Counted from the stretch's first letter, positions 20,898 to 24,096 are shown. The stretch: 64,000 bases of DNA from Escherichia coli (GCF_044324785.1 NZ_CP172127.1), one strand, 5' to 3'. Notes: a model not told the origin generated them from the sequence alone. A program made the numbers and translations.

Positions 20898-20939
20898 ACC
20901 TTACCTCATCAATCGCTTGTCGTTATATGTTGTGTTGTG

Positions 20940-20980
20940 CACATCTATCCGTTTAGACGTCCAGATGTAAAGATGAAGGA
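20940..20980 (-). promoter_or_regulatory. candidate MetJ operator (tandem met-box-like 8-mers) in the metF promoter
   Basis: Minus strand reads ...tacatctggacgtctaaacggatagatgt, i.e. tandem degenerate AGACGTCT-like boxes 45-85 bp upstream of metF. Confidence 0.5.
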
Positions 20981-21189
20981 AAAGCTAAAGGGCGTCAACC
21001 GAAAAATGACCAATGATAGTGAGGAAAAATCAGGGAAGATGAAAAAAACTCATCTTAATTAGAGGCGATAAGAGATTTCTCTATAGCGCAATCCATCTCG
21101 CACGTTTTGACTAATATTCTGACAACACAGCGACACCTGGGCTAATTCGAAAAACAACCTCCTGCCACCGGATGGTGATGCTAAGGCAT

Positions 21190-21222
21190 CTGATTCGGCC
21201 TGCGCTCTCACGTAGGCCGAAT
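21190..21222. repeat. REP-like palindromic unit near the left edge of the metF-metL insert
   Basis: Inverted repeat attcggcctgcg...cgtaggccgaat. Confidence 0.4.
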
Positions 21223-21279
21223 AATGGATCTGCAAAATCAACTGGTAGCAAACAGATGAATCAACTTAATACATACTTT

Positions 21280-22833
21280 TTACTTGATATCCTTCACACG
21301 CATACCGTTGATCTGTTCATCCGTGATGGTATTGCCCGCTTTGAAGTAATCAACCACGGCGTGATAAACGTAATAACCGCCCGTTGTGTTACGCGCTCTC
21401 CCTTCGGTGAAGGCGCTAAAACCATCGCCACCATCAGCAAGGAAACTCTGAGTAGCAATGTGGTAAACCGTCGCATCTTCAATGGGTTTGCCATTCAGAG
21501 TCAGCGAGATAACCCGCTGACCAACCGGCTTACTGCTGTCGTACTTCATTTCCAGGCCTTTCGATACCTGTAAAACGCCATTACTTAAACTTGCGCCGTG
21601 TTCCATCAAACTGCGTAATTGTTTACCCGTGAGATCCATCGTCACCAGTTCGTTGGGGAACGGGAAGGTACTGATGACGCCGCCCATCGTAATCGCCCCT
21701 GCGGGGATCTCATTGCGAATACCGCCAGAGTTGGTTAAAGCCAATTGAGTGTTTTTACCCGCCGCTACCAGTAAAGCGTCCGCCGCCAGGTTCCCCAGGG
21801 ATGCCGATTCACCATAGGCACGTTTTAATTCAACCGGCGATTTCGCGACCGTTTGTTGCACCACTTCATCAAGCTTTTTATTCCAGCCGTCGATCACCTG
21901 TTTCGTTTGCGGATCGGGCTTCCACTCGTCGGCGTAAATGGTTTTAAGCTCGAAGTTTTTCACCGTAAAATCATGCGGCTTCTCTTTGTAGTCGAGAACC
22001 AGTTTGCCCACATCAATCCCGCCACTGTCAGTGGAAAGGATGAGCGTATTGCCGACTTTAATCGGTTCCGGCGTACCCACATGTGCATGTCCGGTGATCA
22101 AAATATCCAGCCCTTTCACCTGACTTGCCGTCTGAATATCTTTATCCAGTGCGCGACGCACATCAGTCCCTCCCATACTGGACTGGCGGGCCGGAACACC
22201 TTCGTGGATCAGGGCGACGGTCAAATCAACCTTGCCTTTGAGTTCATCGATATAACGTTGTAGCCATTTAATTTCATCACGCGCTTCAATACCCACTCGC
22301 GTGGCAGCAGATACTGTGTCATTAAAGGCAAATACACCGTGCAAACCTATAACGCCTATTTTCACACCGTCTTTTTCGATGATGGTATAGGGCTTATCCC
22401 AGAATGATTTACTGCTGTTCTGATAAAAAACATTGCCCTGCACAATCGGGAATTTTGCCTGACTCAACTGTAATAATGTGTTGTCCCAGCCGTGGTCAAA
22501 TTCATGGTTACCCATCGTGACAGCATCGAATGGCATGGTATTCATAATATCGATAATAGCCTTGCCTTTGGTCAGGCTGCTGATATATGGCCCGGTAAAA
22601 TAGTCGCCCGCATCAAAAAACCATGTCGCCTTATTTTTTGCTTTTTCTTGCTTAACCAGCGTAGTGATATTTGCCCAGCCGCCAATATCCCGTTTACCGT
22701 CCGCAATCCACGGCACTTTATAAGGCTCTACATGTGCATGGAGGTCGTTGGTATAAATAATGGTGACATCTTTAGCGCAAGCCCAGAATGGCAGTGTTAA
22801 TGCGATACCCGCAGCAAGTATTTTAATTTTCAT
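21280..22833 (-). CDS. secreted bifunctional metallophosphatase / 5'-nucleotidase (UshA-like)
   Basis: 517-aa ORF with signal peptide ([20 protein letters not shown]), calcineurin-like metallophosphoesterase motifs (DLHAHV, GNHEFD, GHAH) and a C-terminal 5'-nucleotidase-like region. Low-GC; absent from the K-12 metF-metL interval as I remember it. Confidence 0.8.
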
Positions 22834-22965
22834 AAACAGTCCCTTTCAGTGAGATAAAGGATTGCTACATTACGTTCTGAAAGAGTTATTTATGTGAGAG
22901 TAATCACATCCACAGGGGAGCGTTGCCGGACAAAATCAACGACCATGTGAAATCGTTGGTGATAT

Positions 22966-24096
22966 ATGTCGACTCTGTTTACGATTAATGCCTGCAAGTC
23001 GTTTGGTTGCCGTAATTTAGGGCAGCCAACATCGACAGATTATAGCTGGCCCGACTATCGACTGGGTTATCCGGCACTGCACTGTCGGGCATGTGGCAGT
23101 TACCCGCCGTTGTTTGACGAGCAACAATTTCGTGACTGGTTGACAGTTCACTTATCTACTTTTGCAACAGAGAAAGGCCATTTTTGCCCGGTATGTTATG
23201 GTACAGATACGATTTGTTATGGTCACAATCCACAGGGTTCGCAACGCATTCAATGCCGTAACTGCAAAAAAGTATGGACACCCAAACAATATCAGAAAGA
23301 AATAACGACTCCCGAAATAATCGAAACGGTTGCTTTTCTCGTGCCATTTCAGGGAGTCAGCAGCGGGCAGAAACTGTATGTTTTAATCAGTTTTGATGCT
23401 CTTCGCGGTAATATTCTTCATCTTTCTACTAATTACACGCAGCATCAGGCTGGAGAAAGTCTGCATTATCGATACAGAGGGAATGCAGAACCAGAGTTAC
23501 ACGAGAGTAATATTGTACAACGCGTTGATATGCGGGAAGCACAATTTCTACGCCGCAGTCAGTTTGATGAAATTCAGTATGGCAGCGCAGCGCTCAAACG
23601 CAATGCTAAAGGTGTTATTCTGCGTCCGGTTATCACTGCACACGGGCATTTCAGAGTACTGAATATTTTATTCCCTACAGTAAAAACACATGTAATTTCA
23701 CACGAGTGTTTTTTAAGAGGTGCCATTATTACGGCATGGGCTGATCTGTTTCGCCAACAGCAAGGTGAGATTTGGTTTATTGAAGAGGAAATAGCTGACG
23801 ATACCGATAATATGCCCTGGAGTTTTCAGGGAACAACTTATCACGGCTGGTGGAAAAATCAGTGGCAACTTTGGGGTCAGGGCAAAAATCGTAAAATGGT
23901 ATGTGCATTAACGGGCGGAAAGAGTAGCAAAGCAGAAATGCTCTCTTTAGCAACCAGCAGACATTTTATCGACTGGCTACATAAACAAGCAGTATTTACT
24001 CACAGCACCCCGCTTTCCGCAGGGCGCGTTACGCAAATACTGCTTTCTCTGGCTCAGGATTACAACAACTGCGCCAGGCGGTTAATATCCGACTGA
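22966..24096 (+). CDS. hypothetical protein with N-terminal Cys-rich zinc-ribbon-like motifs
   Basis: 376-aa ORF; N-terminal CxxC pairs (CKSFGC, CRAC, CPVC, CRNC) within ~100 aa; no recognisable catalytic motif in the remainder; low-GC; 3' end overlaps the convergent metL by 37 bp. Confidence 0.55.
   Translation: MSTLFTINACKSFGCRNLGQPTSTDYSWPDYRLGYPALHCRACGSYPPLFDEQQFRDWLTVHLSTFATEKGHFCPVCYGTDTICYGHNPQGSQRIQCRNCKKVWTPKQYQKEITTPEIIETVAFLVPFQGVSSGQKLYVLISFDALRGNILHLSTNYTQHQAGESLHYRYRGNAEPELHESNIVQRVDMREAQFLRRSQFDEIQYGSAALKRNAKGVILRPVITAHGHFRVLNILFPTVKTHVISHECFLRGAIITAWADLFRQQQGEIWFIEEEIADDTDNMPWSFQGTTYHGWWKNQWQLWGQGKNRKMVCALTGGKSSKAEMLSLATSRHFIDWLHKQAVFTHSTPLSAGRVTQILLSLAQDYNNCARRLISD

Follow-up and report, generated by a model that had tools for sequence, protein, structure and literature searches.

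A divergent gene pair for a periplasmic 5'-nucleotidase and an InsA-related zinc-ribbon protein between metF and metL of Escherichia coli: probable ancestry and possible role

Introduction

5'-Nucleotidases of the periplasmic type (E. coli UshA, Haemophilus influenzae NadN, Bacillus subtilis YfkN, human CD73) share a two-domain architecture, dinuclear-metal motifs and a signal peptide, and the genes for acquisition and catabolism of nucleosides (tsx, udp, cdd, deo, nupC, nupG) are controlled by CytR, DeoR and CRP, with CytR-regulated promoters typically containing tandem CRP sites. The InsA protein of the insertion sequence IS1 represses its own promoter at the IS1 end, the bound left end overlapping the insA promoter. 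Moreover, transposases have been exapted as regulators, as in the eukaryotic, Mutator-derived FHY3/FAR1 and the bacterial, TnpB-derived TldR. Each of these systems offers a point of comparison for two genes that lie between metF and metL in a stretch of 64,000 nucleotides of an E. coli chromosome (GCF_044324785.1, NZ_CP172127.1; in its full length called the window in the following). One of them, here named nucA, encodes a nucleotidase of 517 amino acids (NucA), the other, here named the Zn gene, a cysteine-rich neighbour of 376 amino acids (the Zn protein).

The nucleotidase is already known from a crystal structure and the locus from one genome paper of 2026, in which the metL..metF region of extraintestinal pathogenic and avian pathogenic E. 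coli (ExPEC and APEC) is designated GR31, a probable nucleoside processing/degradation and transport system, with nucA as ORF (open reading frame) 431 (PMC12928451). GR31 occupies the same chromosomal locus and contains the same nucA as the window but is a 7.8-kb form with five genes, including two further nucleotidase genes (nucB, nucC) and a Tsx paralogue, whereas the window has a two-gene form; the account of the region in that paper makes no mention of the Zn gene, of outgroup synteny or of the polarity of the deletion. The literature was searched for the locus, for the locus tags of CFT073 and for domesticated regulators of IS1 type, with nothing relevant on the Zn protein and PMC12928451 as the only pertinent paper. 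Here the Zn protein, which is encoded by one third of E. coli genomes and also found in Klebsiella, Citrobacter and Enterobacter, gains a predicted fold, an IS1 InsA-like origin and an association with a pathway. In the reading put forward here the two genes would form an ancestral, CRP-controlled nucleotide-scavenging module that was lost from the K-12 type of E. coli and whose second partner would be an exapted IS1-like transposase serving as regulator or sensor. As a whole this reading hangs in the balance, and its parts differ in strength.

The metF-metL interval in the window and in K-12

At this locus the window, an E. coli-type chromosome, is 96-98% identical to complete E. coli genomes and has the gene order ppc ... 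katG, metF, nucA, Zn gene, metL, metB, metJ (Table 1). The genes nucA and Zn are divergent with starts at 22833 and 22966, 132 bp apart, and the Zn gene is convergent with metL, the two overlapping by 37 bp, an overlap that is also annotated in E. coli 19KM1831 and present in Pseudocitrobacter vendiensis and Escherichia whittamii. In K-12 (strain BW25113) metF and metL are separated by 348 bp and both genes are missing, which agrees with the gap of a few hundred base pairs given for K-12 in the initial annotation of this DNA; the presence of both genes in K-12, which would have refuted that annotation, is thus excluded. BLAST comparison places the junctions at 21047/21048 and 24059/24060, where 3,012 bp in the window stand against 197 bp in K-12, and the right border of the variable segment is the metL stop codon itself. 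The initial annotation, made from the sequence alone, had correctly seen a nucleotidase and a 376-residue cysteine-rich protein here, and both reading frames are intact. The extra DNA it had put at about 2.8 kb, within 20898-24096, is real but amounts to 3,012 bp at 21048-24059, and the genes it called convergent are divergent by their starts. Of the AT-richness ascribed to both genes only that of the Zn gene stands, with a GC content of 0.449 and a GC content at third codon positions (GC3) of 0.399, which is 2.6 standard deviations below the mean of the 31 long open reading frames of the window (0.572 ± 0.066), whereas nucA (GC 0.482, GC3 0.522) lies 0.8 standard deviations below this mean. 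The Zn orthologues of Klebsiella and Citrobacter have GC contents of 0.52-0.57.

NucA is a 5'-nucleotidase of known kind

NucA matches the Pfam families Metallophos (PF00149; 50.1 bits, cut-off 21.5, E 6e-13) and 5_nucleotid_C (PF02872; 135.2 bits, cut-off 23.6, E 3e-39), and the metal-binding and catalytic motifs DxH, GD, GNHE, H and GHxH are all present (as DLHAH, AGDYF, GNHEFD, IHEG and GHAHVG). Read by eye, the N-terminus is hydrophobic with AXA at positions -3/-1 (FWACA followed by KD) and without lipobox. Residues 18-516 are about 98% identical to PDB entries 3IVD/3IVE, named 'Nucleotidase', and the crystallised construct begins at residue 18, the predicted mature end of NucA. We take these entries to be c4898 of strain CFT073, with uridine and cytidine bound in the crystals. 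There is thus hardly any doubt, judging from the sequence, that NucA is a Sec-exported periplasmic 5'-nucleotidase, a known protein of a known kind, which shares the two-domain architecture, the dinuclear-metal motifs and the signal peptide of UshA, NadN, YfkN and CD73. It differs from UshA itself, as it aligns well to 1USH in the N-terminal domain only and has its nearest solved structure in 3IVD/3IVE. As a candidate UshA orthologue it was rejected, since it scores 151 bits with the NCBIfam UshA model (NF007109) against a cut-off of 600, its best stretch covering no more than residues 21-251. Of the 'secreted UshA-like' nucleotidase supposed initially, export and UshA-like fold therefore hold, but not orthology. 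No publication on the substrate range or physiological role of NucA was found in the literature searched.

The Zn protein combines two zinc ribbons, one of them InsA-like, with a predicted transposase-like core

The Zn protein had been proposed to contain a zinc ribbon, and it has two: an alignment of the Enterobacteriaceae Zn proteins contains 99 invariant columns, among them the eight cysteines of two Cys4 ribbons, the second of which is homologous to that of InsA. The family is small, as an exhaustive profile search of 1.84 billion representative proteins recovered only 148 clusters; from the exhaustive hidden Markov model search a diverse alignment of 60 members was built. Pfam Zn_ribbon_InsA matches 18 of these 60 (best E 4e-8), and hhalign aligns the family profile with the zinc ribbon and helix-turn-helix (HTH) of IS1 InsA (InsAB') with a probability of 96.7% and E 4e-10. 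The HTH following the InsA-like ribbon is kept in the family consensus and in all relatives of 400-600 residues and is deleted in the Enterobacteriaceae clade of 372-391 residues, the window protein included. In PHROGs only the zinc ribbon found a match, to a phage 'transposase' family. PADLOC models of anti-phage defence systems matched neither NucA nor the Zn protein nor two distant relatives of the latter, and for the 'signalling module' considered in the initial annotation no evidence was found.

How far does the kinship with transposases extend beyond the ribbon? An AlphaFold2 model based on the 60-sequence alignment reached a predicted local distance difference test score (pLDDT) of 95 and a predicted template modelling score (pTM) of 0.94, an earlier model from a 20-sequence alignment (pLDDT 37) having been discarded. 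In this model the core is similar in three dimensions to solved members of the RNase H-like (DDE transposase/retroviral integrase) fold, and Foldseek found weak additional matches to PIWI, NurA, endonuclease V (EndoV) and an IS4 transposase. A Pfam scan (E <= 10) of the C-terminal domain together with nine distant relatives returned no family for the core, the family profile found nothing significant among the PDB sequences (best E 0.29), and hhalign detected no sequence similarity to InsB, compared with which the core is about 100 residues longer. When the DDE positions are assigned from predicted secondary structure rather than by superposition, position 225, the site of the second catalytic aspartate after beta4, is alanine in 43 of the 60 members and aspartate in none, the first acidic position, residue 144, is D or E in only 45, and the C-terminal helices contain no conserved acidic residue in any alignment column of the 60. 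Near-invariant are instead H228 (59/60), E/D247 (60/60), R197, N156, Y168, W296 and W300. On this model the family is devoid of a DDE triad, and its fold is most probably transposase-derived.

In comparison with IS1, the Zn family shares with InsA and InsAB' the Cys4 ribbon and, in most members, the HTH; like InsAB' the Zn protein has a catalytic-type RNase H-like domain after the ribbon, and a conserved palindrome lies just upstream of its gene, as the InsA-bound left end of IS1 overlaps the insA promoter. It differs from IS1 by the lost DDE triad, by an additional N-terminal Cys4 ribbon, by the deletion of the HTH in the clade of the window, by the lack of terminal inverted repeats and by its single-copy presence at fixed chromosomal sites. 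As an IS1 transposase proper the protein was rejected, scoring 19.5 bits with NCBIfam transpos_IS1 against a cut-off of 100. It is very probably an IS1-like transposase derivative, immobile, single-copy and under selection, and almost certainly no working transposase. The link to mobile elements drawn initially is thus, in a way not intended there, probably sound for the origin of the protein, with its InsA-like ribbon and predicted RNase H-like fold, but not for its present state, which is fixed, single-copy and selected and not that of a decaying insertion sequence. The most distant branch of the family (P0249, P0251 and P0254; 468-613 residues) is found on very short metagenome contigs (L054 and L055, encoding P0251 and P0249), as is typical of repeated elements, and has motifs such as TDRQEY-VNW and NGMQxHAEYTM. 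No terminal repeats were seen around the three genes on these short contigs; P0249 and P0251 might be still-mobile relatives.

The Zn gene keeps company with genes for nucleoside and nucleotide acquisition

In all Enterobacteriaceae loci with enough flanking sequence the Zn gene and a nucA-type gene have a divergent arrangement, 132-145 bp apart, and this holds also away from the met genes, at loci in Enterobacter, Klebsiella sp., a kdsA-adjacent locus of Escherichia sp. and Citrobacter sp. Relatives with 24-30% identity are divergent from nupC-udp, or lie directly after, or divergent from, 5'-nucleotidase genes (Enterovibrio among these), and the relative in Aliagarivorans is situated between nupC-deoCABD and tsx. 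The linkage to nucleoside genes spans three orders, from Enterobacteriaceae to Vibrionaceae and Alteromonadales, with one exception among the loci examined, a homologue in Franconibacter helveticus (L045, 4353-9236) that follows genes for a sulfatase and an anaerobic sulfatase-maturase. The module of Enterobacter hormaechei (L007, 9282-10808) abuts an arylsulfotransferase gene. A second association of the family with sulfated compounds, which the nucleoside account does not explain, is possible.

Because several kinds of nucleoside and nucleotide acquisition genes are linked to the family across three orders, the Zn protein is read here as a factor dedicated to this pathway, and because divergent layout is usual for regulators, as a regulator, an assignment that is tentative and falls somewhat short of an even case. 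Its distant homologues stand where a pathway regulator would be expected in the CytR/DeoR/CRP system, namely beside nupC-udp, deoCABD and tsx, albeit the Zn protein has no LacI- or DeoR-type domain. The nucleotide-scavenging role suggested in the initial annotation fits all of the context evidence.

A conserved control region with a CRP-type site

The control region common to nucA and the Zn gene shows 77% mean column identity across 18 loci from about 12 genera, with long invariant blocks, and this non-coding region is more conserved than the adjacent Zn protein, which is only 58-78% identical between the same loci. Midway between the divergent starts lies TGTGAGAGTAATCACA, the sole exact match to the CRP consensus TGTGA-N6-TCACA in the 64-kb window, where 0.03 are expected. 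None of the 18 loci departs from TCACA; its counterpart TGTGA is intact or changed at one base in most of them and at two bases in a few. CRP-like sites are also found beside distant Zn homologues and, with one mismatch, upstream of nucB in the five-gene form. In either direction a plausible -10 hexamer follows at a distance of about 41-43 bp from the site, TAATGT/TAAAGT towards nucA and CAAAAT towards the Zn gene; if the site is centred at -41.5, the near-invariant block TTACGTTCTGAAAG would cover the spacer and the -10 element of the nucA promoter. These consensus matches make CRP control of the module somewhat probable. As in the CytR/DeoR/CRP system, a CRP-type site lies near genes for nucleoside acquisition, but the region has one clear site in place of the tandem sites typical of CytR-regulated promoters.

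Closer to the Zn gene the inverted repeat CAACGA-N10-TCGTTG overlaps both the invariant 11-mer AAATCGTTGGT and GGTGA, the Shine-Dalgarno sequence of this gene. Of the 53 loci fetched, 40 have the 11-mer before the Zn gene, three of them with a second copy elsewhere. The palindrome could be either an operator, a hairpin that sequesters the Shine-Dalgarno sequence or the site of another factor. A terminator-like call of the terminator scan on the minus strand at this palindrome is regarded as incidental. Rfam gave a single chance-level match between 20500 and 24500 at E <= 1; in the control region it recognised neither a riboswitch nor another known RNA. Boxes for PurR, PhoB, DeoR and CytR, sought there by eye against the consensus sequences, were not convincing, and none is claimed. 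In the control regions of some genera the sequence GTTGCA occurs, which by eye resembles a CytR half-site; no CytR site is claimed.

A model for the module and its main competitor

How could the two proteins act together? NucA would remove the phosphate from extracellular nucleotides in the periplasm, and the resulting nucleosides would be taken up and catabolised. The single central CRP site would serve both divergent promoters in a class II-like manner, and since it is placed to do so, the module may be expected to be induced, like the classical nucleoside-catabolic genes, when carbon is limiting. The Zn protein would be the dedicated cytoplasmic regulator or sensor of the module; most simply it would act on the invariant palindrome over its own start, as InsA does on the end of IS1, with the nucA promoter as a possible second target. 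Being an exapted IS1-like transposase, it would have retained the InsA ribbon and the RNase H-like core, while its DDE triad and terminal repeats would be gone, as would the HTH in Enterobacteriaceae. The concept is like that of FHY3/FAR1 and TldR, with the DNA-binding module of a transposase, an inactive core, a fixed host locus, purifying selection and a tie to a pathway; the Zn protein differs from these in its IS1/InsA-like ancestry with an RNase H-type core, in having no guide RNA and in that its regulatory role is only inferred.

Several observations weigh against this model. The loss of the HTH in the Enterobacteriaceae clade weakens the simple view of a DNA-binding regulator. The CRP site and the promoter spacing are consensus matches only, and a scan for sigma-70 consensus promoters did not call the nucA and Zn promoters expected from the spacing. 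The palindrome is paired to 97.9% in the 18 loci without compensatory change, the changes being one-sided and mostly compatible with wobble pairing, its RNA fold of -9.7 kcal/mol (z -0.9) is not unusually stable, and it is present upstream of the Zn gene only and was not found before nucB, nucC or tsx. In addition, H228, E/D247 and D/E144 could form a catalytic centre instead of a ligand pocket, and on the side of ancestry the 197 bp that K-12 has between metF and metL bear no similarity to the window segment or the five-gene form and have an unexplained origin.

The strongest competitor of the regulator model takes up the question of the catalytic centre. The Zn protein might be an RNase H-like nuclease or a nucleotide-processing enzyme with a non-canonical D/E-H-E centre, cytoplasmic and linked to nucleoside salvage, with nucA still being under CRP control. 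The three residues lie near the usual active-site positions (strand end, after beta4 and start of the helix after beta5) and are kept in 45, 59 and 60 of the 60 members for D/E144, H228 and E/D247, the HTH is missing from the Enterobacteriaceae clade, and PIWI, NurA and endonuclease V are among the structural neighbours besides transposases. However, the second catalytic aspartate is missing throughout the family, two zinc ribbons of DNA-binding type and, in most members, an HTH make up the architecture of the InsA repressor, divergent genes with a shared and highly conserved control region are typical of regulators, and no cytoplasmic substrate suggests itself. An enzymatic role is therefore unlikely, though not far-fetched.

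Returning to the regulator model, a more general form of it would be that the Zn protein is the founding member of a gammaproteobacterial family of domesticated IS1-like transposases that turned into nucleoside- or nucleotide-responsive transcription factors for scavenging genes such as those for 5'-nucleotidases, tsx, nupC-udp and deo, the dead core serving as domain for sensing or oligomerisation and the palindrome, a transposon-end-like relic, as operator. This extension is speculative and rather doubtful. If true, the family would be a bacterial counterpart of the eukaryotic transposase-derived regulators and would provide a third regulatory logic for nucleoside catabolism beside CytR and DeoR, missing in K-12. 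Already as a regulator or sensor of nucleoside scavenging, the Zn protein would be a clear bacterial case of a transposase of the DDE-fold superfamily exapted as pathway regulator and an added layer of control over the use of extracellular nucleotides in Enterobacteriaceae of the gut and the urinary tract.

Three states of the locus within E. coli

Of 5,426 complete E. coli genomes 1,843 contain nucA and 1,842 the Zn gene (about 34%), with one locus of the latter per genome. The segment is thus accessory within the species, as had been supposed, and the co-occurrence of the two genes, for which the initial annotation had proposed a survey, is near-perfect. Carriers of the Zn gene include ExPEC, sequence type 131 (ST131) and Nissle-type strains. 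The empty K-12-type state is found in about 3,580 genomes (about 66%), the two-gene state of the window in about 1,180, and a five-gene state, metF-nucA<->Zn-nucB-nucC-tsx-like-metL, in 659, including APEC O2:K1 and Nissle-derived strains. For nucA and for the Zn gene, two of the about 1,843 matches come from records with the class plasmid, which may be true plasmid copies or artefacts of assembly or classification. In E. coli 2018-05-2CC (NZ_AP027877.1, around 4384612-4385279) only the final 496 bp of nucA and the final 175 bp of the Zn gene are left, joined to each other, an internal-deletion intermediate in one genome and unlike the replacement of the K-12 type.

The five-gene form, as exemplified by E. 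coli 729_xx_1_3_yolk (NZ_CP160116.1; L003/L004), contains 4.6 kb more than the window, located between positions 24053 and 24061 of the latter and encoding the 5'-nucleotidase paralogues NucB and NucC and the Tsx paralogue. Over metF, nucA and the control region its identity to the window is 95-98%; where the Zn gene begins, this drops to 86-91%, and from about 23320 on to 70-78%, and the Zn proteins of the two forms are 76-77% identical. The synonymous divergence (dS) between the two forms amounts to 1.09 for the Zn gene versus 0.19 for nucA and 0.10 for metF, and a recombination breakpoint lies inside the Zn gene near window position 23300. Because of the drop of identity within the Zn gene and these differences in dS, the sequences show that the five-gene form arose by recombination, which brought in nucB-nucC-tsx along with a foreign Zn allele. 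By the same comparison the 4.6-kb nucB-nucC-tsx piece is the true insert at the metF-metL locus, and the window does not have it.

An old segment, probably lost from K-12

Is the two-gene segment itself an insert? A pattern scan of one genome per GTDB species yielded 39 loci encoding relatives of the Zn protein, onto which NucA, NucB, NucC, Tsx-like, MetL and MetF were mapped. The order metF-nucA<->Zn-metL is shared, at this very site, by no fewer than nine other genera and by three other Escherichia species: in Citrobacter (more than 10 loci; braakii, youngae, portucalensis, werkmanii and others), Klebsiella oxytoca, K. pneumoniae and K. spallanzanii, in Kosakonia, Phytobacter, Superficieibacter, Kluyvera and Pseudocitrobacter, and in E. 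whittamii and two further Escherichia species. Salmonella enterica subsp. arizonae has kept the order with a truncated Zn gene, and some genera have extra genes on the metF side of the module. NucA is 87-91% identical in amino acid sequence between genera as compared to 90-95% for MetL, and in a neighbour-joining tree of the Zn proteins the met-locus copies cluster by genus. Around the segment no flanking inverted repeats, target duplications, integrase or tRNA were found among the open reading frames and repeats of the window, and a search for transposon ends around the Zn gene and the module gave no convincing terminal inverted repeats in the window and in the Enterobacter and Klebsiella sp. 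loci.

The junction with metL is informative as well. A hairpin directly 3' of the metL stop codon, within the Zn coding sequence, has a folding energy of -39.2 kcal/mol (z -6.5; none of 200 shuffled sequences as stable) and is probably the metBL terminator. The equivalent stretch of the Zn gene is not unusually structured where metL does not abut (z +1.6 in Enterobacter, +0.05 in the five-gene form), and the met-locus copies of Citrobacter and Klebsiella have terminator-like hairpins of their own at that spot. As the hairpin is found only where Zn gene and metL abut, the tail of the Zn gene has, on this sequence evidence, evidently co-evolved with metL. Because of the shared synteny, the genus-wise Zn tree, the MetL-like divergence of NucA, the lack of repeats, integrase and tRNA and the metL hairpin in the Zn coding sequence, the occupied state is very probably ancestral and the K-12 type derived by loss, so that K-12 would represent a deletion or replacement. 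A simple clean deletion in K-12 was rejected in favour of deletion plus replacement, as the 197 bp reach only chance-level local-alignment scores with the window segment and the five-gene form. By eye these 197 bp (L002, 3349-3545) contain a unit resembling the repetitive extragenic palindromic (REP) element, and a 44-residue hypothetical open reading frame of RefSeq partly overlaps them.

Copies of the module, paralogous or transferred, do occur at other sites, in each case with the Zn gene and a nucA-type gene in divergent arrangement: beside the arylsulfotransferase gene in Enterobacter, near dcm-vsr in Klebsiella sp., near purL in Citrobacter sp. and adjoining kdsA in two Escherichia species, one of them E. 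albertii. What follows the Zn gene in these non-met loci is genus-specific flanking sequence. In P. vendiensis (L010) the NucA and Zn proteins are 97% and 95% identical to those of the window, with dS of 0.27-0.36 for the gene pair versus 0.75-1.13 for the flanking metL and metF, which points to homologous replacement between genera at a conserved locus. Since the Zn copy of P. vendiensis nests inside the Escherichia clade, the transfer would have been directed out of Escherichia.

These observations bear on the suggestion, made in the initial annotation, that the segment is a horizontally acquired low-GC insert, or what is left of a mobile element, which in some lineages came to lie between metF and metL. 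It would account for the absence of the segment from K-12 and 66% of E. coli genomes, for a Zn gene that is AT-rich (GC3 0.40) and transposase-related, for the mobility of the module seen in Enterobacter, Klebsiella sp., E. albertii and Citrobacter sp., and for a window pair closer to P. vendiensis than its flanks are, and the 4.6-kb addition with a foreign Zn allele in 659 genomes is a genuine insertion at this very locus. The synteny survey nevertheless largely refutes it: the identical gene order at this locus in no fewer than nine further genera and other Escherichia species, the genus phylogeny of the met-locus Zn copies, the divergence of NucA on a par with core genes, the missing marks of insertion, the terminator-like hairpin of metL within the Zn gene and the outward direction of the transfer to P. 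vendiensis make an acquired insert very unlikely as origin of the segment. What looks like an island would then be ancestral DNA that the reference strain has lost, and presence or absence in K-12 is uninformative on polarity.

Selection on the Zn gene

At non-synonymous sites the divergence (dN) of the Zn gene is about fivefold higher than in nucA or metL, and in comparisons with saturated dS its dN/dS is 0.09-0.15. Nearly all of about 40 loci and 1,839 E. coli genomes have a full-length reading frame, Salmonella arizonae and one Escherichia locus a truncated one; by these measures the gene is under purifying selection. That it is a neutral hitch-hiker, an immobilised and decaying transposase gene linked to nucA by historical chance, is most improbable, since the faster non-synonymous change, the two truncations, the want of a Pfam family for the core and a product named only 'cytoplasmic' or 'hypothetical protein' are outweighed by the low dN/dS, the intact frames, the 99 invariant columns, the invariant upstream 11-mer and a linkage to nucleotidase, nupC-udp, deo and tsx that recurs in distant orders.

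Features of the window

Table 1. Position of the features discussed, counted from the first nucleotide of the window
Feature	Position	Strand	Basis or remark
katG	17498-19717	-	
metF	20007-20897	-	
metF upstream region common to K-12, outside variable segment	20898-21047		Unbroken K-12 alignment to 21047, 96.3% identity
Variable segment, 3,012 bp	21048-24059		BLAST of K-12 locus against window
Non-coding stretch downstream of nucA	21048-21279		Sequence reading
Candidate degenerate REP-like palindromic units	about 21160-21235		By eye against REP consensus
nucA, periplasmic metallophosphatase/5'-nucleotidase (predicted), 517 aa	21280-22833	-	Sec signal peptide, Pfam domains
Divergent control region, 132 bp	22834-22965		Common to nucA and Zn gene
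Near-invariant block TTACGTTCTGAAAG	22870-22883		Columns 49-62 of 18-locus alignment A3
CRP-type site TGTGAGAGTAATCACA	22893-22908		Consensus match TGTGA-N6-TCACA
Inverted repeat CAACGA-N10-TCGTTG	22937-22958 (with 11-mer to 22960)	+	Exact match; overlaps Shine-Dalgarno GGTGA
Invariant 11-mer AAATCGTTGGT	22950-22960	+	Overlaps inverted repeat
Zn gene, 376 aa, 12 Cys	22966-24096	+	Annotated 'cytoplasmic protein' / 'hypothetical protein'
Zn ribbon 1, C10/C15/C40/C43	22993-23094	+	
Helix	Residues 52-70 of Zn protein	+	
Zn ribbon 2, InsA-like, C74/C77/C97/C100	23185-23265	+	
Predicted RNase H-like domain with extra four-stranded sheet and C-terminal helices	23317-24093 (residues ~118-376)	+	
Hairpin, probable metBL terminator	23987-24045	-	Inverted repeat I1; RNA fold
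Convergent overlap of Zn gene 3' end and metL 3' end, 37 bp	24060-24096		ORF coordinates
metL	24060-26492	-	
Orphan Rhs C-terminal fragment, 452 aa, DUF4329	30206-31564	-	
ISAs1/H-repeat-type DDE transposase, GC 0.39	32484-33245	-	
Small ORF near Rhs gene	33949-34410		
Rhs protein, 1,409 aa	34422-38651	-	

The window contains a second region that is missing from K-12, at about 30200-38650 between yiiX (28309-28917) and priA (39154-41424), in which the Rhs genes and the ISAs1/H-repeat-type transposase gene listed in Table 1 are located.

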